DNA of 52,512 nucleotides from Candidatus Helarchaeota ASGARD archaeon Hel_GB_A (GTDB lineage: Archaea; Asgardarchaeota; Lokiarchaeia; Helarchaeales; HEL-GB-A), in the NCBI GenBank assembly GCA_005191415.1, contig SUPS01000001.1:1-52512 (forward strand), in the 5' to 3' direction. The notes below the pieces were generated by a model, which made no database searches, was not told the DNA's origin, and saw only the letters and a list, made by a program, of their open reading frames with translations. Below are positions 3,269 to 41,988 of the stretch, in pieces (position 1 is the first letter of the stretch; every line of letters starts with the position of its first letter). A program made the translations under genes and the position numbers.

Positions 3269-4465
3269 TTATTTTGCAGAGACAATTTTAATTATATCGC
3301 CATATTGTAACTCATAACTTTCGCCTAAACGTTTTTTAGTCCGGGCATTGATTCCATGGATAAAATATTTCTCGAAATCTGTGTGAATTTTACCCGCAAA
3401 TTTTCGAAGCGGCATACCTCGCTTTACTAAATACACATCGGGTAGCACTCTACCATCTTTATCTGAATAACTTTGAACATCATGGACTGGATATACTGGG
3501 ATCAAGTCTAATAGTTCAAAAACTGTTACATTTATAGCTTTTTGGACACCTAAGGACCCATATTCTGATAAAAGCTGTTTTAAATTATCCAATACTTTAA
3601 GTTCTTTTTCAGAAAACACTTCCGGCTTTAATACTTCAAATTTATTATCACCAGGTTGATACACAATAATTCCTTTTTCGGCATAACGACGTAACCAATA
3701 TTCTCCAAGTGCGCATGCAGGAACTACTATCTTCTCTAATGTCTTTTGCATTCGTGCAATATTTTCCTTTGCGGGTCCTAAATCCATTTTGTTTGCAACA
3801 ATTAACATCGGTTTCGCAATAGCTTGAAGTTCTTTCGTAAATCGTTCAATATCTTTCTCAGACCAGCTACTTGGTTTTTCTGCGTTAAGATTACTTTTCT
3901 TTACAGCACTTATAATGTGTGTTCTGGTAATACTTAATCCCGAAAGACGATCCGCCATTGTCTCGATAAATGAAATTTTTTCGGTTTCAATTCGTCTGGT
4001 AAATTTCCGCCAATCGCGCCTTATTATCTGCATCAACCACATAATAATCTCATGATCTAAAAATTCTACGTCTTTTAAGGGATCCCATGTACCTGGTGGT
4101 ACATTTTGTCCCTCTGCATCTGTTGCCCCTGCCGCATCGACGACATTTATCAATGCATCAGCACGTCTCAAATCATCCAAGAATTTATTCCCTAATCCCT
4201 TCCCTTCCCATGCCCCTGGGACCAATCCTGCTACATCTAATAAATTTATGGGAATTAAACGTGTGCCATTTACACATAAAGAATTTTTAGGGTTACATTG
4301 TACATTTAACTGTTTACAAGGGCATTCTGCTGTTACATAGGCGGTTCCTGGATTAGGTTCAATTGTTGTGAAAGGATAATTGCCCACCTTAGCAGTGGTC
4401 ATACATGCAGCATTTAGAAACGATGATTTACCACTACTCGGTTTTCCTACTAATCCTATTAACAT
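3269..4465 (-). CDS. Obg-family GTPase, Ygr210/YchF-like subfamily, with C-terminal TGS-like domain
   Basis: 398-aa ORF. G1 is GLVGKPSSGKSS, G3 is DVAG and G4 is NKMD, so it looks GTP-specific (unlike the NxxE of true YchF/OLA1). The C-terminal YELQYGDIIKIV is a TGS-like beta-grasp. Confidence 0.85.
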   Translation of the reverse strand: MLIGLVGKPSSGKSSFLNAACMTTAKVGNYPFTTIEPNPGTAYVTAECPCKQLNVQCNPKNSLCVNGTRLIPINLLDVAGLVPGAWEGKGLGNKFLDDLRRADALINVVDAAGATDAEGQNVPPGTWDPLKDVEFLDHEIIMWLMQIIRRDWRKFTRRIETEKISFIETMADRLSGLSITRTHIISAVKKSNLNAEKPSSWSEKDIERFTKELQAIAKPMLIVANKMDLGPAKENIARMQKTLEKIVVPACALGEYWLRRYAEKGIIVYQPGDNKFEVLKPEVFSEKELKVLDNLKQLLSEYGSLGVQKAINVTVFELLDLIPVYPVHDVQSYSDKDGRVLPDVYLVKRGMPLRKFAGKIHTDFEKYFIHGINARTKKRLGESYELQYGDIIKIVSAK

Positions 4466-5363: not shown

Positions 5364-8300
5364 ATGACAGTTCCGCTACGATTGCGTTTGATTTCAAGTA
5401 AAAAGTTCGAGAAGCCTATCTATACTGTAGCGACAGGTGATTTTGATGGCGATGGACGTTTAGAACTTGCAATTGGCTGTGGTGATGGGAGCCTTCAATT
5501 ATTTAAATTCGATAGAGGAAATTTAAACTCGGTCTGGACTACCAAATCTTGGGCTTGGATTGATCAAATCATTGCTGCCGATATAAATCAAGACTATATC
5601 GATGAATTACTCGTAATTATGGGCAAAAAATTGATTATCTATAAATATAAAGACCCAACTTATGAACAAATTTGGGAAATTGAAACTAACGCCACCATTA
5701 CTTCTGTTTTCGTGGGTGATTCGAATAATAACCGCCAAAATGAATTATTGATCTGTTGCAATGACGGCTCGATCACGATATTTGCACAAACGGAAGAACC
5801 CTTTAAATTTAAAAAAGTCTGGAGAAAAAAATATGAAGGTGACACGCTCATCAGTCTCGGTGATTTAGACGCTGATACCTTGAATGAGATGGTCATAGCA
5901 AACAATAACATACTCCGGATTTTCCGTGTAATTGAAAAATATCCTAAGAAAGAAGTTTGGTCTGAAACCTTCAAAGCCTACATAAAGAAATTATTATTAT
6001 TCGATTTAAATGATGATAAAAAATCAGAAATTTTCTTAGGAATGGAGGATGGAGCGCTACGAATATTTAGTCATAAAGATGGAAATTATTTCTCTGAAGA
6101 TAAACAATATAAATTCACAAATCTTGTCTCTGCTTTAGCATCAGGAAAAATCCATGATAAAAATATCATAATAGCAGGGTCTTATGATAATACTTTACGA
6201 GGATTCCGGGATGCCGAGATCTTTAAGATTGAAACTTACGATAAGATTTACGCGCTCTCATTTTCTGATATAGACCATGATGGAATCGATGAAATTATCT
6301 GTGCAAGTGGTAATAACCTTTATATTTTAAAAGATGAAGTATTTCTCATTTGCCAAATCGATTATCCCATATCCATCTTCTCTGAAAAAGAGCTTATAAT
6401 TACTTTTTACATAAAGAATAACTCAGAAAATCGAATTTACAACATAGATTTCTCAAATTTAGAGTGGGTTCCCAAAATTTTAACTTTAAAAAAATCAACC
6501 TTCAAAATTCCCCTTCTCGAAAAATATAGTGGGGTCGAATTAACTTTCAAATTTGACGTGCCTTTGGTTGAAAAGGTCACTCCTGTTGTATTTCCACGGT
6601 TTAAAATAACATTCGAAATGAAAAATTTACAATTATCACAAAATATTCCTGAAATTTCAGTGAATATCCTTCCACCCTTCTCTCATATTGCACAAAATAT
6701 TCTCAAGAAATGTGAGCACCTCACAAATATAAAAGTTCCTTTGAAATCACTTACAAAGCTTGTCGAAAAGGATCTTGGTCCTTTAAATCACGATATCGAA
6801 CAGATTATTTCTCGACTAATTGAAGAAGGCTTTATTGAAGGGTCACTTTCTAATTGGGTTTTATTTATTCGCGATTTAAAACCTTTCTCTGCAGAAGCTT
6901 TCAAAGAAGAATATCCATCGGCTCAGAAAGTTATACCTCCACGCCTTTTTATGAATGTGTTAAGAAAGATTATCAAAAGCAAAAAGAGAACACTATTGCC
7001 TGAACTTATTAATCAGTATAAACATGATCTACAAGAAATCCAGGACATGATTAAAAAACTTAAAGATAACTTTGAAATTACAGGTGTATTAATTCCCGAT
7101 GAAGAATTTCTCTTTTTATCGGATAATGAAATTAACCAGATTGTTGAAACTATTAATAATACTCCTAATATCTCACTTTCAGAGATTGCCGCACGTTTTG
7201 ACCTCCTTGAGAAAGAAGTAGAATTTCTTATCAACGATCTTATCGATCGAGGTATGTTGTATGGCCAAATAATCACTCTTGATAATGAAAAAAAATTCAT
7301 TACCGTAAAAACCTTATCAGAACTTCTTCTGAATGAATTAGAAAAGCAAGGTAAAATAACTATCTTGACTTATTCTCGAAAAATGGGTCTCTCTGCCGAT
7401 CTTGTCCGTGAGGCGATAAGAACTCTTCTTGACTCAAACCAAATTCAAGGCACCTATACTTTCAATGGAGCTATCTTTTATACTCAAGCTCGACTTGAAA
7501 AGGATTTATTAGATACCATCAAAATTTCAGAAATCAGTAGTATTGGACTAAGCTCATTAGCGAAAGACTTTATGATTTCTAAAGACACAATAACTGCAAT
7601 TTTAAACAATCTCATCAACAAACAGCTAATTAATGGATATATCTCAGAAAATACTCTCTTTATAAAGAGCTATGAAGAAGAACGGTTACGTGATATTTTT
7701 GAAAAATATGTAGATGCTTTAAATCTCATTCATATATTAATAATTCACAAAGAAAGTGGAATTGCCATTTTCTCTGGATCATATACTACTGAAAAAATTG
7801 ATCCTGTCCTTGTTTCAGGATTCTTACAAGCTATCACTTCTTTTGGTTCCGAAATTTCAGGAGATCACGCTCCTTTTAGACTCTTACATTATAAAAATTT
7901 TAAAATTTCTGTTCAAGAAGGACAACATATTCTTGGTGCCCTTATCCTCAAATCAGATCCTTCCCAACGACTTCTCGATATCTTAAAGCATTTTATCCGG
8001 TTTTTTGAAACGAATTACCGCGAACATCTTCAAGATTTCCGTGGTGGTATTGATCCTTTTCAGGATGCAGATACTTTAGTTGATGACTTTTTTGAAATCA
8101 GCTTGAGTTTCCCCCATGAAATCAATGAAAAACAAGTGTTTAAAAATCGAAATAAATTATCTGCGAATGATCTTGTTTTAATTAATTTAGCACGGAGCCT
8201 TGGACGCCAATTTGCCCTTGGAACCTTGATAGAACTCGCTAGTAAGGAAATGTTGATTTCCCAACTTGAAGCATTTTCTATAATTTATGACTTACGAGAT

Positions 8301-8423
8301 AAAAACATTTTCTACGTCCCTAGTGAAGAACGTAAATGGTGCCCCCATTGCGGGTCCATCATCCAAAAGTCGGCGACTACCTGTCCTCATTGTTTACGCA
8401 ATATTCACGAAACTCTTGATTAA
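5364..8423 (+). CDS. Multidomain protein: 7-blade FG-GAP-type beta-propeller, beta-sandwich, tandem winged-helix array, longin-like domain, winged helix and C-terminal zinc ribbon
   Basis: 1019-aa ORF. Seven repeats of the type TGDFDGDGRLELAIGCGDGSLQLF (aa 1-325; D-x-D/N-x-D-x3-E in six of seven). All-beta segment at aa ~326-437. Five repeats of a ~45-aa wH-like unit at aa ~455-768 (e.g. LSEIAARFDLLEKEVEFLINDLIDRGMLYGQI). A beta-beta-alpha-beta-beta-beta-alpha segment at aa ~785-890. WCPHCGSIIQKSATTCPHC at aa 992-1010. Confidence 0.8.
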   Translation: MTVPLRLRLISSKKFEKPIYTVATGDFDGDGRLELAIGCGDGSLQLFKFDRGNLNSVWTTKSWAWIDQIIAADINQDYIDELLVIMGKKLIIYKYKDPTYEQIWEIETNATITSVFVGDSNNNRQNELLICCNDGSITIFAQTEEPFKFKKVWRKKYEGDTLISLGDLDADTLNEMVIANNNILRIFRVIEKYPKKEVWSETFKAYIKKLLLFDLNDDKKSEIFLGMEDGALRIFSHKDGNYFSEDKQYKFTNLVSALASGKIHDKNIIIAGSYDNTLRGFRDAEIFKIETYDKIYALSFSDIDHDGIDEIICASGNNLYILKDEVFLICQIDYPISIFSEKELIITFYIKNNSENRIYNIDFSNLEWVPKILTLKKSTFKIPLLEKYSGVELTFKFDVPLVEKVTPVVFPRFKITFEMKNLQLSQNIPEISVNILPPFSHIAQNILKKCEHLTNIKVPLKSLTKLVEKDLGPLNHDIEQIISRLIEEGFIEGSLSNWVLFIRDLKPFSAEAFKEEYPSAQKVIPPRLFMNVLRKIIKSKKRTLLPELINQYKHDLQEIQDMIKKLKDNFEITGVLIPDEEFLFLSDNEINQIVETINNTPNISLSEIAARFDLLEKEVEFLINDLIDRGMLYGQIITLDNEKKFITVKTLSELLLNELEKQGKITILTYSRKMGLSADLVREAIRTLLDSNQIQGTYTFNGAIFYTQARLEKDLLDTIKISEISSIGLSSLAKDFMISKDTITAILNNLINKQLINGYISENTLFIKSYEEERLRDIFEKYVDALNLIHILIIHKESGIAIFSGSYTTEKIDPVLVSGFLQAITSFGSEISGDHAPFRLLHYKNFKISVQEGQHILGALILKSDPSQRLLDILKHFIRFFETNYREHLQDFRGGIDPFQDADTLVDDFFEISLSFPHEINEKQVFKNRNKLSANDLVLINLARSLGRQFALGTLIELASKEMLISQLEAFSIIYDLRDKNIFYVPSEERKWCPHCGSIIQKSATTCPHCLRNIHETLD

Positions 8424-9760: not shown

Positions 9761-10493
9761 TTTCCCCCTCTTCTGTTGGTGATACTATCCGTACACCTGC
9801 CATGATATAGTTAGGATCTCGAATCATATGTATTTTTTGAATTAGCTTCTCTGCATGTGTTGAAACCGCTTCAAACGCCCTTTTCTCTGGAATTTTTACA
9901 AGACTCGCCAAAGCCACCAGCTCTCGTGGGGCTCTCATCTCCCATTTAGATTGTGCGCCTGAGCTAATGAGAAAAGGTACCTTTGATCGAATTATTTGGG
10001 TGCAAGTTTTTATCATCTGTCTCAGTAACTTAGATCGTTGCACACCACTTTGAAGAATTAAATTACGAACCACGATTTCAATGAGTTTCCCATTATTTCT
10101 TGCCATTTTAAAATGAGCATACTCTAAACTTTCAAAATCTGCTATTTCTGAAAGCGAGATAATATCAATACGCTTATCGACAATCGCATTCACATATATT
10201 GTCTTATCTTCTATACCACTTTTTATTGCTATAATATCAACTTGATTCCGCAAATTCTTAACCCATTTTTTCATTTCATCGGTAGTTTTGGGCGCCAATG
10301 TAGCTCTTGTAAAGATAGGACATCGTTCTTTGTATTTATTACGAAACCCCTTAATTATTTTCGGTGTATGATTAGTAAAATCCGCAAGTCCAATTCCTGC
10401 AAATCCTAATTCGATCGCCATCTCTATCATGATTTCTGGTTCATCTTGCCCATCTGACAGCGACGAATATATCCCTAAATCATAATATTTCAT
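9750..10493 (-). CDS. rnp3: RNase P protein component 3 (Rpp30 homologue, PHP/TIM-barrel)
   Basis: 247-aa ORF beginning MKYYDLGIYS. Size, position immediately upstream of Pop5 and 11-nt overlap are typical of the archaeal operon. Confidence 0.75.
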   Translation of the reverse strand: MKYYDLGIYSSLSDGQDEPEIMIEMAIELGFAGIGLADFTNHTPKIIKGFRNKYKERCPIFTRATLAPKTTDEMKKWVKNLRNQVDIIAIKSGIEDKTIYVNAIVDKRIDIISLSEIADFESLEYAHFKMARNNGKLIEIVVRNLILQSGVQRSKLLRQMIKTCTQIIRSKVPFLISSGAQSKWEMRAPRELVALASLVKIPEKRAFEAVSTHAEKLIQKIHMIRDPNYIMAGVRIVSPTEEGENGD

Positions 10494-10930
10494 AGTGGTA
10501 TCAATTCCAATTCTTGTAGAAATCCTTTCATTTTCTCTTGATTTGAATATTTTCTCGAAAATCCAATTCGAACCCTTATTGTATCCTTTATTTCTCTTAA
10601 TTGAACAATATTTCGGTATAAAGCCTGTTTATCGAATCGCAAGTATAAATTATTATTTTGAATTCGGCGACTTAGAGTCTGGAGCAGATAATTCTTATCA
10701 GCATCGCTTATTCGTTTCGCAATATATTCCAATATTTGTCGTGTATTTTGAGTGAGTTTCGTCCGAATAATTTGTATTGGATTATGATATACACCCCTTA
10801 CATTGCTTGTCATAAATCTCTCACATTCTATATTTGGCGGAAGCATTTTTTGAATTGCTAATACTACCTTTTCAGGGTCCTCAGTCGCCTGTATAAATGC
10901 CTCAATCTCAATATCCTTAATTTCTTTCAT
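10490..10930 (-). CDS. Predicted RNA-binding protein of the archaeal exosome superoperon (COG1931/DUF54-like)
   Basis: 146-aa ORF. The N-terminal IEIEAFIQATEDPEKVVLAIQKMLP resembles the DUF54 signature. 4-nt ATGA overlap with Rpp30. The gene order COG1931-Rpp30-Pop5 is conserved in archaea. Confidence 0.55.
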   Translation of the reverse strand: MKEIKDIEIEAFIQATEDPEKVVLAIQKMLPPNIECERFMTSNVRGVYHNPIQIIRTKLTQNTRQILEYIAKRISDADKNYLLQTLSRRIQNNNLYLRFDKQALYRNIVQLREIKDTIRVRIGFSRKYSNQEKMKGFLQELELIPL

Positions 10931-11004
10931 TTTCCATCTTAAAAGATAATAGTAAATATTATTGGAAGCTTAAATTCTAATCATCAAAAACTTTTCGTGG
11001 TTTT

Positions 11005-11511
11005 ATGTTAGAAGTAAATATTCCGGGTTTTGGAGAATTAAAAATAAAGCACATCGTATTTGACTTGAATGGTACCCTCTCAATGAATGGCGAAATTGAC
11101 CCCGCGCTCCCAAATATGATAAAAGAGCTCAAATTACGTGGATTAAACGTCTATATCTTATCAGCAGATACCAGGGGCAAATTAAATGAATTAGCAAAAA
11201 AATTAGGTGCTGAACCTCACAAGCTCACTTTTAAAATGCGTGAATCAGAAGAAAAAGCAAATTTCATTAAGCAATTAAATCCAAATTCTGTAATTGCTGT
11301 AGGAAATGGAATAAACGATGCCTTAATGTTAAAAGAAGCCCGTTTAGGAATTTGCATCATTGGTAAAGAAGGCGCTGCAGTAAGTGCCCTCCTCAATTCT
11401 GACATATGTGTTAATTCACCCAAAGAGGCACTAAATATATTGCTAGATCCCATCCATTTAATCGCGACCCTCCGCAATTCACAATTAGAACGCAATTCAC
11501 AATTAAAATGA
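11005..11511 (+). CDS. Small HAD-superfamily hydrolase (soluble P-type ATPase-like, COG4087-type)
   Basis: 168-aa ORF. HAD motif I is IVFDLNGTL and motif IV is GNGINDALMLKEA. The C-terminus carries an 18-bp tandem duplication (RNSQLE/RNSQLK). Confidence 0.7.
   Translation: MLEVNIPGFGELKIKHIVFDLNGTLSMNGEIDPALPNMIKELKLRGLNVYILSADTRGKLNELAKKLGAEPHKLTFKMRESEEKANFIKQLNPNSVIAVGNGINDALMLKEARLGICIIGKEGAAVSALLNSDICVNSPKEALNILLDPIHLIATLRNSQLERNSQLK
11473..11508 (+). repeat. 18-bp tandem duplication (17/18 identical) at the 3' end of the HAD gene
   Basis: CGCAATTCACAATTAGAA (11473-11490) is followed by CGCAATTCACAATTAAAA (11491-11508), immediately before the stop codon. Confidence 0.9.
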
Positions 11512-11605
11512 ATACCCAAAAATTCATTAATAATTTTAATCACATATCTTTTCATTAAAAGATATGAAGATTTTAAAAGGTAGATTCGAACTTTTGGTGA
11601 TATAA

Positions 11606-12142
11606 ATGAATCTAGAATATAGCCCTGGAACTCCTGAGGATTTATTCGGGAAGAAAGTTCGGCTTCTGGTAGCACAAATGACTTATCCAGAACTTGTAAA
11701 TTTCTTACTCCTTCATCGGACACCAGAACAAGCCGAAGAAGATCTACGCGATGTTGCGAAAGGAATCTGTAAAAGTTTGCTGAAATTATGGAAGCCCAAA
11801 TCACGAACTGTCACAGGATTGATAAATGAGTTGTTAAAAGTTATTTGGAATGGTAAAATCAAACATAAAATTATTGAGCGCACACCAGATGGTCGTCCAA
11901 TTAAGGTTCACTTCTATGATCTTGATTGCAAACTATGCAAATCAGAGGGTGAAGTATTAGAGGCTGAGGGGATATCCTATTGTGCCGCTGTGGGAGGTTT
12001 TATTGAAGAACTTTTAAATTTTAAGGCCAAAGAAGGAACCATGAAACTAAATTACAAATCCGTTAAAACTAAAACGATATCTAGTAAAGCTAGTGGTGGC
12101 GATTTATGTATTCATGAATGTATCTTCAATTATGAGGGGTAG
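11606..12142 (+). CDS. V4R / TRAPP (Bet3-like) domain protein
   Basis: 178-aa ORF. Helical N-terminal half, then FYDLDCKLCKSEG ... ISYCAAVGGFIEELL ... GGDLCIHECIF. This matches the V4R pattern (Cys pair, Y-C-x2-x-G-x-hydrophobic-x-G helix, C-terminal GD-x-C strand). Confidence 0.65.
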   Translation: MNLEYSPGTPEDLFGKKVRLLVAQMTYPELVNFLLLHRTPEQAEEDLRDVAKGICKSLLKLWKPKSRTVTGLINELLKVIWNGKIKHKIIERTPDGRPIKVHFYDLDCKLCKSEGEVLEAEGISYCAAVGGFIEELLNFKAKEGTMKLNYKSVKTKTISSKASGGDLCIHECIFNYEG

Positions 12143-17260: not shown

Positions 17261-18448
17261 TTATGCATAAAATTGAATTATGTCTTTATCTTGCAATTCA
17301 TAGTTGATTCCTACCTGTTTTTTGGTCATTTTTCTCCTATCTTTCGAATCTTGTCGAAAAAGTTTCGCATACTTAAAATTCTCCAGAAATTTATTATGAA
17401 GCCGTTCAGCAACATCTTGAACTACCGCCTTCTTAGGCAAGACGATGGGTATTGGCGAGGGTTCTTTCCCAGGCTCTTTAGTATAGACTCGAATTACCTC
17501 TAATAAGTCGAAAATCTTTCTTGACAATTCGGTGATACCTTTATTTTTAAGGACCGAAATAGGATGAATTTGGAATCGATCACCGTATCGACGCTTAAGA
17601 ATCCAGAAATTGTGACGTGATCCTTCTACATCGCCTTTATTTGCAACGATAATTGCTTTTTTACTTATTAATTTTGTATTAAGAGCATCAATAACATCAT
17701 CAAGAGTACATGTATCTGTAATTCTTACAATGGCATTGTGAATTTTCCTATCTACTAAAAGATCAACAATGTCTTTTCGATTACTATCTATCCGTTTTCC
17801 ATGAAATATAACAACAATGCCCCCTGAACCCGTTTTCTCGATAACTACGGGAAGTTTAGGCATATTTAGGCGAATGTTTGCAGATTCTAACTCTCGGAGA
17901 ATTAATTCCATCTGAGAAATCGGATCGATTGAAATATCAATAAGGATTAAAATAGCATCCGAATTACGTATCGCACTCAATATTTGGCGTCCATTTCCTT
18001 GCTTTACATTCATATTTTCGAAAATTGCAGGAAGCTCAATCATCTGGATAAGGATATCCTCATATTTCATCATTCCTAATGCAGGTAGTTTAGTGGTGAA
18101 ATTGTAAGCCGCAATTTCTACATCCACACCAGTTAATGCCTTCAATAACGAACTTTTTCCTGCATTTGTAGCCCCTATAATAACTATCTGCCCCGCCCCT
18201 TCTTTTTTAATACTAAAAGGTGAGACGCTGGAACTTCGACCTTTCTTCACCTTTTCTAGTTTTTTTTCGAGCTCATATTGTAATTTCGATAACCGTTTTT
18301 TAAGATTATACAATAAATTCTCTGTTCCTTTATGTTTAGGAACGAGCGCAATATACTCTCGCAAGGTTTTTATCTGTTCCTCGAGAGAGCTCGCTTGCAT
18401 ATACCTTTGTCTAGCCGCAACTGCTTCAGGAGAGAGATTCGTGGGCAC
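17261..18448 (-). CDS. DRG-type Obg-family GTPase with C-terminal TGS domain and a degenerate G3 motif
   Basis: 395-aa ORF with a GTG start. G1 is GATNAGKS, G2 is NFTT and G4 is NKGD. The TGS-like end is INYELQDKDIIQFYA. G3 reads ELPA (nt 18026-18037) instead of DxxG. Confidence 0.85.
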   Translation of the reverse strand: MPTNLSPEAVAARQRYMQASSLEEQIKTLREYIALVPKHKGTENLLYNLKKRLSKLQYELEKKLEKVKKGRSSSVSPFSIKKEGAGQIVIIGATNAGKSSLLKALTGVDVEIAAYNFTTKLPALGMMKYEDILIQMIELPAIFENMNVKQGNGRQILSAIRNSDAILILIDISIDPISQMELILRELESANIRLNMPKLPVVIEKTGSGGIVVIFHGKRIDSNRKDIVDLLVDRKIHNAIVRITDTCTLDDVIDALNTKLISKKAIIVANKGDVEGSRHNFWILKRRYGDRFQIHPISVLKNKGITELSRKIFDLLEVIRVYTKEPGKEPSPIPIVLPKKAVVQDVAERLHNKFLENFKYAKLFRQDSKDRRKMTKKQVGINYELQDKDIIQFYA

Positions 18449-30855: not shown

Positions 30856-32697
30856 TTAATTAGGAAACTTAATTCTAAGGGATGGATCACCAAGGAGGAG
30901 ATACATGGCAATATTTTCTTTCGTATAATCATCCGGAAAGTTTCTATAAAGTTGTATTGTAGCATAATTGAAAATCTTTCCGACAACGCGAAGTTTTTTA
31001 TCGACAATCGCCCGGAAAATAAAACGGTCAAAATGATGATTTGGCTGTGTATAACTGGGGCGACTTGCACCGAGAAATGCGACTGCACCATTTGCTGCTT
31101 CTACAAATGCTTCTCCAAAACATTCGCCACTAACATCTATTGCATTATTAAGACAACATATCGAAAATACAATTGGAAATTTCCCATTGTTTTTTAATTT
31201 CCTGACATCATTGACATCAAGGCCATTTGAGGATTGCCATTCCCACTCGCTTCCATGTCCTCGGTAGTTAACGATCCCGCATCCTTTCTCTAATTCATCG
31301 ATAACTTCTTCTTTTGTAGATTCTCCGCCATATCTCTTGATTATTCGGAAGCCTTTCTTTTTTACTCCTTTTAGAATTTCTGCGATATCGTCACAACAGC
31401 TTATATAATCATCTCGTTCATAAGCAGTTAAGAGCACACGATTTATCCAAGTACCTCTATTATTTTTTTCATACTCCAAGATTTTATTAATATATCTTTT
31501 CAATTTCTTTGGATCATTGATAGCAATTCGCCCAAGGGATATATCTGGTCCAATATCTCCTATCAAATTTGAATAATACCAATCGCTGGGGCAGTTAAAA
31601 GTGGGATCTTGACGTGTTGGAATTTTTCCGACCTCGCCTACTAACAGAACATATTCCGGTGGCTCTTCCCAATAATCATATGCAAATAAGATAAAATCAC
31701 GAATAGCTTTAAAATTTTCCTTATTTTCACTTTTAAATTCATTATAAATTTCAATATCAGTTACAATTTTCGTTGTCATACCTCGTTGTTCTTTACTCTC
31801 TGCCAATGGTTTCAATACTTGAACTAAATTCTCAGAAGTAATAATAAGATATTGTCCCTTATTAGAAGTTTTACATAATTCCCCCCTATTAATTGGGATC
31901 GCGATTCTCCGAGTGCCTCCATCACCAAGTGTCCGAAGATCTTCGATTGACTCTAAGTTTAATACTTGATCTTTGTATTCTGCCAGTATTTTCTGAGCGA
32001 TTGGTGCTACAGGCTGGATTTCCTTTGCTTCACTCGGTTTTTCGGGCGCTACTCCTCTCAACTCTGCAATTCCTAGGCCTGGGGTATATTCGATAATTAA
32101 ATTAATTTGATTATATACGATTAACTTTTTAGACTTTGGCTTGTAATGCAATGGATACATCATAAGATGGAGAACTTTTACACTTCCTACAAAATTTGTT
32201 GATATGACTTTAAACAGTTCTTTGGGGTACTCCTCATCCTTTTTATAAATCTGATCTTTTGGTTTATATTCAGGCTCTTTCCAGTCATATTCAAAACCAC
32301 CGTCCAACGTTGGTTCTGGTGCTGGAATGATATTCAATTCACCAGGGAATTCGAAACTCTCACTATCGACGACTTTAATATCTAATAATTCTGCCCCTGA
32401 AGGCAATGCTACAAATAATCCTTCAATTGGTAGCATTGGTTCGCCTGGTTCTAGAATTACACCGGATTCTGGCATCTCTAGGGTATATACTTTGGTGTCT
32501 TTCTGCTGAATTTTTGCGACAATTTCTTTATACCACATACCTTCGGGTGTATATGTTATTTTTAATTCATATGCTCCTTTTTCGTCTTTAAAATCCTTCT
32601 GTAATTGCTTCTGAGGAGGTATGCCTATCTCTTTAGCCCCTCTCAACTTTCTTTTTTCTTTAAAAGCTCGAAAACTAAACCATTCAGCCATTTTCAT
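30856..32697 (-). CDS. Peptidase family C25 (gingipain-like, clan CD) with N-terminal C25 propeptide-like domain and no signal peptide
   Basis: 613-aa ORF. IVNYRGHGSEWEW (His481) and FPIVFSICCLNNA (Cys514/515) match the gingipain His/Cys dyad contexts (YTGHGSE ..., ACVNG). The N-terminus MKMAEWFSFRAFKEKRK is charged, not signal-like. Confidence 0.8.
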   Translation of the reverse strand: MKMAEWFSFRAFKEKRKLRGAKEIGIPPQKQLQKDFKDEKGAYELKITYTPEGMWYKEIVAKIQQKDTKVYTLEMPESGVILEPGEPMLPIEGLFVALPSGAELLDIKVVDSESFEFPGELNIIPAPEPTLDGGFEYDWKEPEYKPKDQIYKKDEEYPKELFKVISTNFVGSVKVLHLMMYPLHYKPKSKKLIVYNQINLIIEYTPGLGIAELRGVAPEKPSEAKEIQPVAPIAQKILAEYKDQVLNLESIEDLRTLGDGGTRRIAIPINRGELCKTSNKGQYLIITSENLVQVLKPLAESKEQRGMTTKIVTDIEIYNEFKSENKENFKAIRDFILFAYDYWEEPPEYVLLVGEVGKIPTRQDPTFNCPSDWYYSNLIGDIGPDISLGRIAINDPKKLKRYINKILEYEKNNRGTWINRVLLTAYERDDYISCCDDIAEILKGVKKKGFRIIKRYGGESTKEEVIDELEKGCGIVNYRGHGSEWEWQSSNGLDVNDVRKLKNNGKFPIVFSICCLNNAIDVSGECFGEAFVEAANGAVAFLGASRPSYTQPNHHFDRFIFRAIVDKKLRVVGKIFNYATIQLYRNFPDDYTKENIAMYLLLGDPSLRIKFPN

Positions 32698-32723
32698 CCC
32701 ATTTTTTCTTTTTAATTTTCTAT

Positions 32724-33407
32724 TTATATATTCTCGATGTTTAAAATTTGATCATCATATCCTGCAGGAATACGCCTTTTACTTCTTTCCGGGACACCCC
32801 GTAAGGGTGGTGCTTTCTCGACTCCTAATTCATATTCAATCTCTAATTCTATTTTCCGGTATAGATCAATCTTATTAGAAAGAGGGTAATATTGAACTGG
32901 ATACATCATTAAATGAATTACCTTGACATCTCCTAGCTGTTTAACCCCCAAATTTTTAAAAAGCACCCCTGGATATGCATTATCACTCTCATATATTTCC
33001 TTTTTTGGATTTATTTCTGGCATACCACTCGGATCTGTTGTCGGTTCGGGGGCTGGCTTTACTTTATAGTCAAGTTTATACGTTTTCTTCTTTGTCTTTC
33101 CTACTCTTATCTCAGTGACTGTTGCATCATCAGGAATTGCAACATATAAGCCTTCCTGAGGGAGTGATGGCTCCCCTGGCTCAAGATTCTGACCCGCGTT
33201 GGGTATTTGCAATTCATTGAAAACAAGATCCGCTGTTTGTCGCACTTCAACATTCCATAGTCCTTTTGCTTCATATATAACCTTGATAACATTCTTTTCC
33301 TTCTCAATGAGCTTACTCTGCTTCAAAGGCGTCGTTCCTCTTGATTTTCCTAACCATTTCCGCATTTTTATCACTTTGTTATACGGTGAGATTAATTTGT
33401 GATTCAT
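32724..33407 (-). CDS. Stand-alone C25 propeptide-like domain protein (paralogue of the N-terminal ~250 aa of the adjacent C25 peptidase)
   Basis: 227-aa ORF (possibly starting at Met15, nt 33365). LEPGEPSLPQEGLYVAIP / KVIHLMMYPVQYYP / IELEIEY parallel LEPGEPMLPIEGLFVALP / KVLHLMMYPLHYKP / INLIIEY of the peptidase. It ends (DDQILNIENI) where the peptidase continues (KDQVLNLESIEDL). Confidence 0.65.
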   Translation of the reverse strand: MNHKLISPYNKVIKMRKWLGKSRGTTPLKQSKLIEKEKNVIKVIYEAKGLWNVEVRQTADLVFNELQIPNAGQNLEPGEPSLPQEGLYVAIPDDATVTEIRVGKTKKKTYKLDYKVKPAPEPTTDPSGMPEINPKKEIYESDNAYPGVLFKNLGVKQLGDVKVIHLMMYPVQYYPLSNKIDLYRKIELEIEYELGVEKAPPLRGVPERSKRRIPAGYDDQILNIENI

Positions 33408-40768: not shown

Positions 40769-41839
40769 TTATTTGGGCGCAAGGAATTTCTTCAGACGAT
40801 CTTCTTTTGTATCTAATTTTTTTCTTAATTGCGCTGCTTTTTTCCCTAATAAAAGAAATAGTGTATCTAAAAATTTGTTTTTTAAGTCCAGTTGTTCTAG
40901 AACTACTTCTACATCAATTTTATTCTCTACTTTTTCCAATAATTCTTCTAATTGTTCTGATTTTTTAACCATTTTTAAGATTGAAATTCGGATAAAAGTC
41001 AGAATTTCATTTTCTGATTTCATTTTCTTAATTTTTTTGAGTAAAGTTTTCGCAAAAATGAAATCGTTCTCTAAATTCTGAAATTTTCCTCTATCAATGT
41101 AATATGTTGGTAATTGATATAAGGATTTAAAGACGGGCGGATTTTTATTCCATTCACGCTCTTCTACCATTAAAATATCAAATGCAGGTATTTCTAGCGT
41201 GTCCGCTGTTATTGTTTCAGTTACGACGATCTTATGGGGAATGAGGGGGATGAGTGAATTGCAAATATTCATTGCAGTTTTAAGGTCTTTCCCTACGATT
41301 ACAACAGGAAAATTACAAATGATGCAATGTAAGAGTTTAACTAAATTATCTTTTTTGATGATTTTAAATAGTGATTTAATTGGTAATGTTTCAATGGGTT
41401 TTGTAAATTGATAATCTATTTTTTTAATATCTTCGAAAAGGCGCATCAATTCAACAGTGCTCACTGAGGGATCTTCACTTCTTAAGGCAGGTATGATTTG
41501 TTTTATTCGATTTTCTAAATATTCTGAATTATCATATAATAATTTTTCATCTTTCTTATCTACAAGTATTGAGACGGCTGCGGGTCTCGTGCCTCCTCTT
41601 GCCTGGCTAGTGGGAATGACGAAATAATAAATAAACATTGATAAACTTGCGAGTGACAAAGCTATAATTGCTTTTCCTTCATGGTCTTTCTGGTATTCCC
41701 CAAAAAACGATGATGTTAAAGATTGGACGGCAACATTCATAATCAACTCTTCACTGGTATCAGCCGGCAGATAAAATGCGGGCATTGGTCCGAATTCGTC
41801 ATCGAACACCGAATATAATAGAATTTTGTCGGTCATCAC
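40769..41839 (-). CDS. Hypothetical protein; candidate longin plus DENN-core (folliculin/SMCR8-like) architecture with a K/E-rich helical tail
   Basis: 356-aa ORF. The N-terminal ~120 aa has a longin-like secondary-structure pattern with FIYYFVIPTSQARGGTRPAAVSILVD. Residues ~150-225 read LPIKSLFKIIKKDNLVKLLHCIICNFPVVIVGKDLKTAMNICNSLIPLIPHKIVV. See findings. Confidence 0.7.
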   Translation of the reverse strand: MMTDKILLYSVFDDEFGPMPAFYLPADTSEELIMNVAVQSLTSSFFGEYQKDHEGKAIIALSLASLSMFIYYFVIPTSQARGGTRPAAVSILVDKKDEKLLYDNSEYLENRIKQIIPALRSEDPSVSTVELMRLFEDIKKIDYQFTKPIETLPIKSLFKIIKKDNLVKLLHCIICNFPVVIVGKDLKTAMNICNSLIPLIPHKIVVTETITADTLEIPAFDILMVEEREWNKNPPVFKSLYQLPTYYIDRGKFQNLENDFIFAKTLLKKIKKMKSENEILTFIRISILKMVKKSEQLEELLEKVENKIDVEVVLEQLDLKNKFLDTLFLLLGKKAAQLRKKLDTKEDRLKKFLAPK

Positions 41840-41988
41840 ATCTATTCCATTATATTTTTACTAATTCGTACTTCCTACTTATCTTCTTACCTTTTAAAAA
41901 ACCTATCTTACAGAAATTTCCTATTTCGGTATATCGTCTTATATTTATTTATACGCACGATGATATTCTAATCTTTTATATTTACTTT

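Follow-up and report, generated by a model that had tools for sequence, protein, structure and literature searches.

An unannotated Helarchaeota gene for a longin-DENN protein of the FLCN/SMCR8 type, with a candidate arginine finger

A minus-strand gene at 40769..41836 in a stretch of 52,512 nucleotides from Candidatus Helarchaeota archaeon Hel_GB_A (contig SUPS01000001.1, positions 1 to 52,512; the whole stretch is called the window below) encodes a protein of 355 amino acids (aa). We found that this gene is an unannotated, Helarchaeota-restricted member of the FLCN/SMCR8-type longin-DENN proteins already reported from Asgard archaea, and we regard its homology to the FLCN/SMCR8/DENN class as nearly certain. 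The protein is most likely a regulator of an Arf/Rag/Rab-like small GTPase, either a GTPase-activating protein (GAP) or a GTPase-binding regulator. Judging from the alignments and the predicted structure, we think it reasonably probable that it is a GAP for an unlinked GTPase of this kind and that it acts through an arginine finger, R81 (residue numbers, here and for R85 below, are counted from the GTG at 41839). The fold, the homology to FLCN, SMCR8 and DENN proteins, the conservation of a GP motif and of R81, and the recurrent coupling of the same longin class to GTPases are supported directly by the data and carry this reading.

Predicted fold and family membership

The AlphaFold (AF2) model computed from a 42-sequence alignment is confident throughout (mean predicted local distance difference test, pLDDT, 92.1; predicted template modelling score, pTM, 0.70). 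It supersedes a first run with 19 close orthologues as the alignment, in which the C-terminal half was good, the longin lobe was poor (pLDDT ~45-60) and the Foldseek ranking was already the same. As modelled, the protein is tripartite, consisting of a longin domain, a cDENN alpha/beta core and a dDENN helical lobe, all encoded on the minus strand. The longin (uDENN) domain, at 41480..41827 (residues ~5-120; pLDDT ~90-96), has its elements in the order β-β-α-β-β-β-α-α, namely β1 6-13, β2 17-24, α1 30-44, β3 55-61, β4 66-76, β5 84-94, α2 95-103 and α3 105-119. A longin-like strand/helix order had been proposed for the first ~120 residues by an earlier reading made from the letters alone (the sequence-only reading), and it is a near-exact match to the confident model. 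The longin and DENN lobes are joined by a linker helix (41408..41470, residues ~124-144), which is a single helix in the model. The cDENN-like alpha/beta core follows at 41030..41380 (residues ~154-270; pLDDT 88-97; Pfam DENN at 144-199), with PVVxVG, P201-H-K and D221 as its conserved columns, and the dDENN-like helical lobe at 40781..41014 (residues ~276-353) is predicted to comprise the helices 276-303, 310-317, 321-339 and 345-353.

When the model was compared with the PDB by Foldseek, with E<1e-3 as the significance cut, 24 of the 24 matches within the cut were longin-DENN proteins or GAP-class longins. The C9orf72-SMCR8 complex was on top (7mge_C at 1.7e-10; also 7o2w and 6lt0), DENND1A/B was matched at E=1.9e-10, and the FLCN chains 8dhb_J, 6ulg_L and 6nzd_H at E about 1e-9. 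FNIP2, DENND10, NPRL2/3 (GATOR1) and Lst4 were also returned, and the full-length matches to FLCN, SMCR8/C9orf72, FNIP2 and DENND1/10 span E 1e-10 to 1e-6. The Asgard longin 8yqg was matched with TMt 0.70 at 3.1 Å, and the crystal structure of the FLCN C-terminal domain, 3v42, with TMt 0.55-0.61 over about 205-214 columns. Because the span of the 3v42 alignment needs the last lobe of the model, the K/E-rich tail is to be read as the dDENN lobe and not as a separate coiled coil. Thus, the "K/E-rich helical tail" that the sequence-only reading had seen in the last ~90 residues is helical indeed, but it is a well-packed lobe (pLDDT 94-97). Unrelated folds, such as secretion ATPases, appeared only at E>2e-3 and with low probability.

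Rank 25 of the same search was 9t0n, TagF, a type VI secretion accessory protein of Acinetobacter baylyi (E=1.3e-3, probability 1.00, 206 columns). The match, obtained with a predicted structure, suggests that a DENN-like fold may exist in a bacterial protein.

At the level of sequence, Folliculin and DENN were the top two Pfam families for the single query sequence. Folliculin (PF11704) was matched by residues 68-174 with E=2.1e-4 (21.5 bits against a gathering score of 23.3), and DENN (PF02141) by residues 144-199 only, with E=2.4e-3 (18.3 bits against a gathering score of 23.4). Among 19 orthologues scanned singly, Folliculin was matched in 18 (best E=1.3e-5) and DENN in nine (best E=1.4e-4), and the orthologue P0003 carries a precomputed PF11704; an NCBIfam scan of the query gave no match. 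When 1.8 billion representatives were searched exhaustively with HMMER, 47 relatives in all were returned at E<1e-3. The distant relatives come from this search, word-indexed homologue searches with alignments having found the close orthologues and the sister protein P0060 only. Independent Folliculin matches were observed in the distant relatives P0026, P0037, P0025 and P0059, of which that of P0059, with 27.1 bits, is past the gathering score of 23.3. Furthermore, P0060 bears a precomputed PF27109 (SMCR8_C).

A family profile of 42 members matched the solved Lokiarchaeota longin domain 8yqg (E=7.5e-13) and made three collinear matches to human SMCR8: the first is the GP motif (ILISEFSEQVGPQPLLTIP), in the second (LYDLEARGFVRPFCMAYI) SMCR8 R147 falls on the column of R81, and the third is the DENN core at SMCR8 722-756 (IYSLLSGRTLVVLGEDEAIVRKLVTALAIFVPS). 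In searches of the PDB, the single sequence and the profile of close orthologues reached nothing relevant, only diverse profiles reached 8yqg and, weakly, SMCR8, and FLCN was not reached by sequence with the family profiles. The call of a folliculin/SMCR8-type longin and DENN protein, made in the sequence-only reading, is borne out by the Folliculin and DENN profiles and by FLCN, SMCR8/C9orf72 and DENND1 as the top structures (about 1e-10 to 1e-9). The human FLCN strings given there agree with PDB 6ulg_L, the arginine of SLARG(FQR) being R164. Its DENN-core register (query ~165-228 with FLCN 360-423) is the one that hhalign also picks, although that hhalign alignment is non-significant. A lack of profile or structure matches, an unconserved arginine and an unrelated fold were each tested for, and none of them was found.

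GP motif, candidate arginine finger and coupling to GTPases

A GP motif beside an arginine finger has been published as the signature of longin GAPs, with G68-P69 and R147 in SMCR8, and is found also in FLCN and NPRL2 (Traffic 2025, PMC12290439). We count C9orf72 among the GAP-class longins for its GP motif only. According to the Traffic study, FNIP2, NPRL3 and the DENND proteins do not have the GP and arginine signature, and 15 Asgard longins have both the motif and the arginine finger (PMC12290439). In the Helarchaeota protein, this signature motif of the GAP-class longins is G17-P18 (41786..41791, minus strand), in the β1-β2 turn at the start of β2. It is invariant in the 19 orthologues, and among 44 distant representatives aligned to the family hidden Markov model (HMM) G17 is kept in 44 and P18 in 43. 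R81 (41597..41599, minus strand) lies in the β4-β5 loop within the motif A-R-G-G and is aligned to SMCR8 R147; with FLCN R164 it shares the A-R-G motif, a match by motif. R81 and G82 are invariant in all of the 19 orthologues and kept in 31/44 and 38/44 of the distant representatives, respectively. A second arginine at +4, R85 (41585..41587, minus strand), is common to FLCN (ARGFQR) and SMCR8 (ARGFVRP). At this position 11 of the 44 distant representatives have R, and 22 have R or K; the alignment suggests that the role of R85 is probably structural or auxiliary.

The sequence-only reading had proposed either arginine as the finger, at codon coordinates that are correct under the GTG numbering. 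Its proposal holds for R81, which is invariant in the orthologues, present in 31/44 relatives and aligned on SMCR8 R147, and fares poorly for R85 (11/44). Because the GP motif and the arginine have been published as a pair, we favour R81 rather than R85 as the candidate arginine finger, equivalent at the level of sequence to SMCR8 R147 and FLCN R164.

The same longin class occurs fused to GTPases, fused to winged helix-turn-helix (wHTH) domains, or joined to DENN-like cores (three subfamilies). P0025 (2.9e-23) and P0052 (2.2e-27) are fusions with a Gtr1/RagA-type GTPase, and P0029, P0038 and P0059 (1e-38 to 1e-47) are fusions with a Ras/Rab-type GTPase. These fusion proteins also bear the GP motif, and the equivalent of R81 is kept in 16/16 Rag- or Rab-type GTPase fusions and fusion fragments. 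As far as can be read from the sequences, the fusions may represent built-in, in-cis GAP regulation. In the DENN-b subfamily, R81 is kept in five of seven proteins. The gene for a DENN-b protein, the sister protein P0060, was found at 10001..11652 of locus L009 (Logan DRR620298), with an Arf-family GTPase gene (PF00025, E=1.2e-39) 15 bp downstream. A Ras-family GTPase gene lies at 3514..4059 of this locus, 6 kb off the P0060 gene, and the P0060 gene has on its two sides large proteins (1308 aa and 879 aa) for which Pfam gave no match. The pairing of P0060 with an Arf GTPase, seen at a single locus, the only DENN-b locus retrieved, echoes the action of C9orf72-SMCR8 on ARF1. For genome scans aimed at DENN-b, one alignment had no usable conserved stretch, and with another no confirmed locus was found.

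In the mechanism that we infer, which concerns GAP catalysis, the client GTPase and the oligomeric state, the longin domain would dock on the nucleotide-binding face of an Arf/Rag/Rab-like small GTPase encoded elsewhere in the Helarchaeota genome. The GP turn (G17-P18) would shape a pocket, and R81 on the neighbouring β4-β5 loop would be inserted as an arginine finger, so that GTP hydrolysis is stimulated. Scaffolding and dimerisation would fall to the DENN lobes. By analogy with FLCN-FNIP, SMCR8-C9orf72 and the dimeric 8yqg, the working unit is probably a dimer, and we guess at a homodimer because no partner paralogue is found nearby.

From the longin topology, the β1-β2 turn with the GP motif and the β4-β5 loop with R81 are expected to be near each other, at one end of the sheet. 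Several points weigh against a GAP of this description. The query stays under the Pfam gathering scores for both Folliculin and DENN. Taken singly, the matches of the family profile to SMCR8 are not significant (E 0.014-0.07 for the whole sequence), nor was the hhalign alignment of this profile with single-sequence human FLCN (E=0.04, probability 1.3%). Searches of the window (52 kb) and of the sequence flanking the gene in the orthologous loci L001-L008 (+-10 kb in six loci) found no Ras-superfamily GTPase, roadblock gene or paralogue. A literature search found no biochemical assay for any Asgard member. Furthermore, the DENND1 Rab guanine nucleotide exchange factors (GEFs) match the model as well as the GAPs do, and R81 is absent from a full-length subfamily of relatives, DENN-c.

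The match to DENND1 leads to another possible explanation, in which the protein is a DENN-type GEF or a GTPase-binding platform for a Rab-like GTPase, as DENND1 is, and R81 is non-catalytic. The DENND1A/B-Rab35 structures are among the best Foldseek matches, and the query has a sub-threshold Pfam DENN match. A GEF role was suggested for Asgard DENN modules by Liu et al. (bioRxiv 10.1101/2020.10.19.343400, published 2021), and among longin/DENN platforms GEFs outnumber GAPs (PMC12290439). However, the query has the GP motif with an aligned arginine, which is specific to the GAP-type longins and not present in DENND proteins (PMC12290439). Folliculin also scores above DENN in this family, and more steadily (18/19 against 9/19 orthologues), and all of the 16 GTPase fusions and fragments keep R81. 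We consider a GEF or platform of this kind unlikely on this evidence.

The DENN-c proteins, about 370-390 aa in length, come from Hod/Heimdallarchaeota (loci L010-L019 and L021; proteins P0030, P0031, P0036, P0040, P0042 and P0055). They keep the GP motif and have the R85-equivalent arginine in 7/8 and the R81 equivalent in 0/8. Because the whole subfamily is without R81, the fold can function without this residue, and by analogy DENN-c is reminiscent of non-catalytic or GP-only subunits such as C9orf72. The Helarchaeota protein might likewise be a non-catalytic scaffold or dimerisation subunit, like FNIP, C9orf72 or NPRL3, which binds another longin-DENN or roadblock protein and only positions a GTPase, and in which R81 is structural. 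The persistence of the architecture without the arginine in DENN-c would agree with this, as would the eukaryotic complexes, which are obligate heterodimers, and 8yqg, which is dimeric and without the arginine. However, R81 and G82 are invariant in the 19 orthologues and aligned to the catalytic subunits SMCR8 and FLCN, not to the partner subunit, and no catalytic paralogue was found adjoining the gene; DENN-c, moreover, belongs to other phyla. A scaffold role of this kind is, in our view, quite improbable. DENN-c itself was considered as an FNIP/C9orf72-like partner from the same genome and rejected, its genes being found in Hod/Heimdallarchaeota and not in Helarchaeota.

Gene start and genomic neighbourhood

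The open reading frame (ORF) on the minus strand at 40769..41839 was confirmed; it has 356 codons, ends with the stop codon at 40769-40771, and has the translation that the sequence-only reading quoted. The GTG at 41839 is in frame, one codon before the ATG at 41836 (codon 2). Because all of the orthologues begin with MSxKILLYS (n=19), the ATG at 41836 and not the GTG is most likely the translation start, giving the product of 355 aa. A public gene call for the same gene (P0001, 338 aa) begins at M19, and β1 and the conserved GP motif are thereby lost. The orthologues put the start 17-18 codons further upstream, and by this comparison the start of P0001 is mis-called.

The 19 full-length orthologues have 64-76% identity and 354-359 aa, except two with spurious N-terminal extensions. 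Those with names are all from metagenome-assembled genomes (MAGs) of Helarchaeota or Promethearchaeota (Asgard), and all are labelled "hypothetical protein". The orthologous group is limited to Helarchaeota and close Promethearchaeota MAGs, with ~20 sequence clusters and only two GTDB species representatives. Elsewhere in the window, the genes are of typical archaeal kinds (RNase P p30, Rpb4/RpoF, L15e, Pus10, CofC/CofD and DUF2095). Since both this gene content and the orthologues are typically archaeal or Asgard, the longin-DENN gene is archaeal and not a eukaryotic contamination. An orthologue with 69% identity and a Helarchaeota-like gene order lies on L008 (DATKTP010000034.1), yet the record of this contig bears the name of a bacterium, "Candidatus Deferrimicrobium sp."; the contig has probably been mis-binned.

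The only recurrent neighbour of the longin-DENN gene is a DEAD/Helicase_C/DUF5814 helicase gene upstream on the same strand, seen both in the window and at L001-L006, at a distance of 116-175 bp. The protein might work with this helicase in a nucleic-acid process, its likeness to trafficking regulators being merely ancestral. However, these genomes are closely related (64-76% identity) and syntenic over long ranges, so that adjacency tells little, and in L008 an ORF of 453 aa intervenes between the helicase and longin-DENN genes. In addition, the spacer of 150 bp in the window is AT-rich and lacks conservation, as would fit separate promoters, and the fold gives no sign of nucleic-acid binding. 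We regard a joint role with the helicase as highly improbable, and an operon of the two genes was rejected as uninformative synteny among close relatives, in view of the L008 insertion and the non-conserved spacer. In the 150-bp spacer between the two genes, the sequence shows a TATA-like AT-rich element, TAAAAATATAA (41850..41860, minus strand), which precedes the ATG by ~15-25 nt. It may conceivably be the own promoter of the longin-DENN gene; no alignable conservation of the element was seen among the orthologous loci.

The P-loop GTPases of the window are two of the Obg family only, at 3269..4465 and 17261..18448, both on the minus strand, one YGR210-like and one DRG-like (MMR_HSR1 and TGS). 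They are of translation-associated types and were rejected as clients of the longin-DENN protein.

Two other loci of the window deserve mention. At 5364..8423 (plus strand), a multidomain protein of 1019 aa has an N-terminal beta-propeller that matches FG-GAP_3 (4e-17), BBS7 (4e-15), Itfg2 (3e-11) and BBS2_Mid (4e-9). The propeller is followed by matches to DDRGK (3.5e-7), E3_UFM1_ligase/UFL1-like (6e-7) and PCI (9e-14), and by a C-terminal zinc ribbon. By these profile matches, the protein is a eukaryote-like mix of UFMylation-type modules and an ITFG2/BBSome-type propeller. In eukaryotes, ITFG2 is a subunit of KICSTOR, which tethers GATOR1. At 30856..33407 (minus strand) lies a gingipain-like Peptidase_C25 gene (1e-75), adjoining a separate Propeptide_C25 gene, and the pair is kept in the orthologous Helarchaeota loci.

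Implications and comparison with known systems

Both mTORC1 signalling and lysosomal trafficking are under the control of FLCN, SMCR8/C9orf72 and GATOR1, and mutations in these proteins are found in Birt-Hogg-Dube syndrome, amyotrophic lateral sclerosis/frontotemporal dementia (ALS/FTD) and epilepsy. The origin of the longin-based GAP mechanism is a question of eukaryogenesis, and the Asgard homologues have so far come from sequence and predicted structure. One possibility, to which we give slightly less than an even chance, is that the Helarchaeota protein is an arginine-finger GAP in minimal form, free of inserts and possibly a homodimer, with an Arf- or Rag-like GTPase as its client. In that case, the GP and arginine machinery of FLCN, SMCR8 and NPRL2, together with a full DENN module, would have been an archaeal GTPase off-switch before eukaryotes and lysosomes, and the heterodimeric eukaryotic complexes would derive by duplication of such a single-chain ancestor. 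The protein is short, is without the disordered inserts that make the human proteins harder to study, and has a confident model and both motifs; it is thus a practical candidate for the first biochemical or structural test of an archaeal longin-DENN GAP. The presence of R81 in every Rag- or Rab-type fusion and the coupling of the sister gene to an Arf-family GTPase gene narrow the choice of the client GTPase.

A complete longin and DENN module in a prokaryote had been implied to be new by the sequence-only reading. This was overstated, for Asgard modules of this kind had been described in 2020/21 and 2025: Liu et al. reported DENN-domain and FLCN-like proteins in Asgard archaea, including Hel lineages, and described an operon of LAMTOR1-like, Rab-like and DENN genes (bioRxiv 10.1101/2020.10.19.343400, published 2021). 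The gene studied here is not in such an operon. Of the solved structures, the longin domain of the Lokiarchaeota Roadblock-Longin protein (8yqg) is nearest in sequence and, as regards the N-terminal domain, also in fold. The GP motif (QAGPEP) is present in it, but not the arginine (ENLKEPEKTF at the R81 position), and it is joined to a roadblock domain, with no DENN core.

Among the eukaryotic systems, the Rab35 GEFs DENND1A/B (3tw8, 6ekk) have the two-lobed longin and DENN fold in common with the archaeal protein. They are GEFs, not GAPs, and the DENND family is without the GP motif (PMC12290439), whereas the archaeal protein has both GP and R81. For the NPRL2/3 chains (9o5d_D, 9v0j_A and 7t3b_B), the alignment covers about 140-145 columns, that is, the longin domain only. 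An identity as a GATOR1 NPRL2/NPRL3-like protein was considered and rejected, as the remainder past the longin domain matches DENN modules and not the NPRL2-specific C-terminal domain.

FLCN, the RagC/D GAP that works with FNIP1/2 (6nzd, 6ulg, 8dhb, 3v42), gives the best family match (PF11704), has A-R-G-x-x-R in common with the archaeal protein, and is reported to carry the GP motif (PMC12290439). Unlike in the archaeal protein, strands of its longin domain are separated by a large insert and its linker is long, and it acts on Rag heterodimers on Ragulator. SMCR8, the catalytic subunit of the C9orf72-SMCR8-WDR41 Arf GAP (7mge, 6lt0, 7o2w), has 937 aa, long disordered inserts included, and functions at lysosomes as an obligate heterodimer with C9orf72, joined by WDR41, whereas the archaeal protein has 355 aa and is insert-free. 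The identity between the two is about 11-13%, with weak profile E-values. Nevertheless, the tripartite arrangement of longin, cDENN and dDENN is common to both, and the two proteins can be compared motif by motif: EQVGPQP of SMCR8 with the archaeal EFGPMP at the GP motif, EARGFVRP with QARGGTRP at the arginine finger, and LVVLGEDE...FVPS with VVIVGKDL...LIPH in the DENN core.

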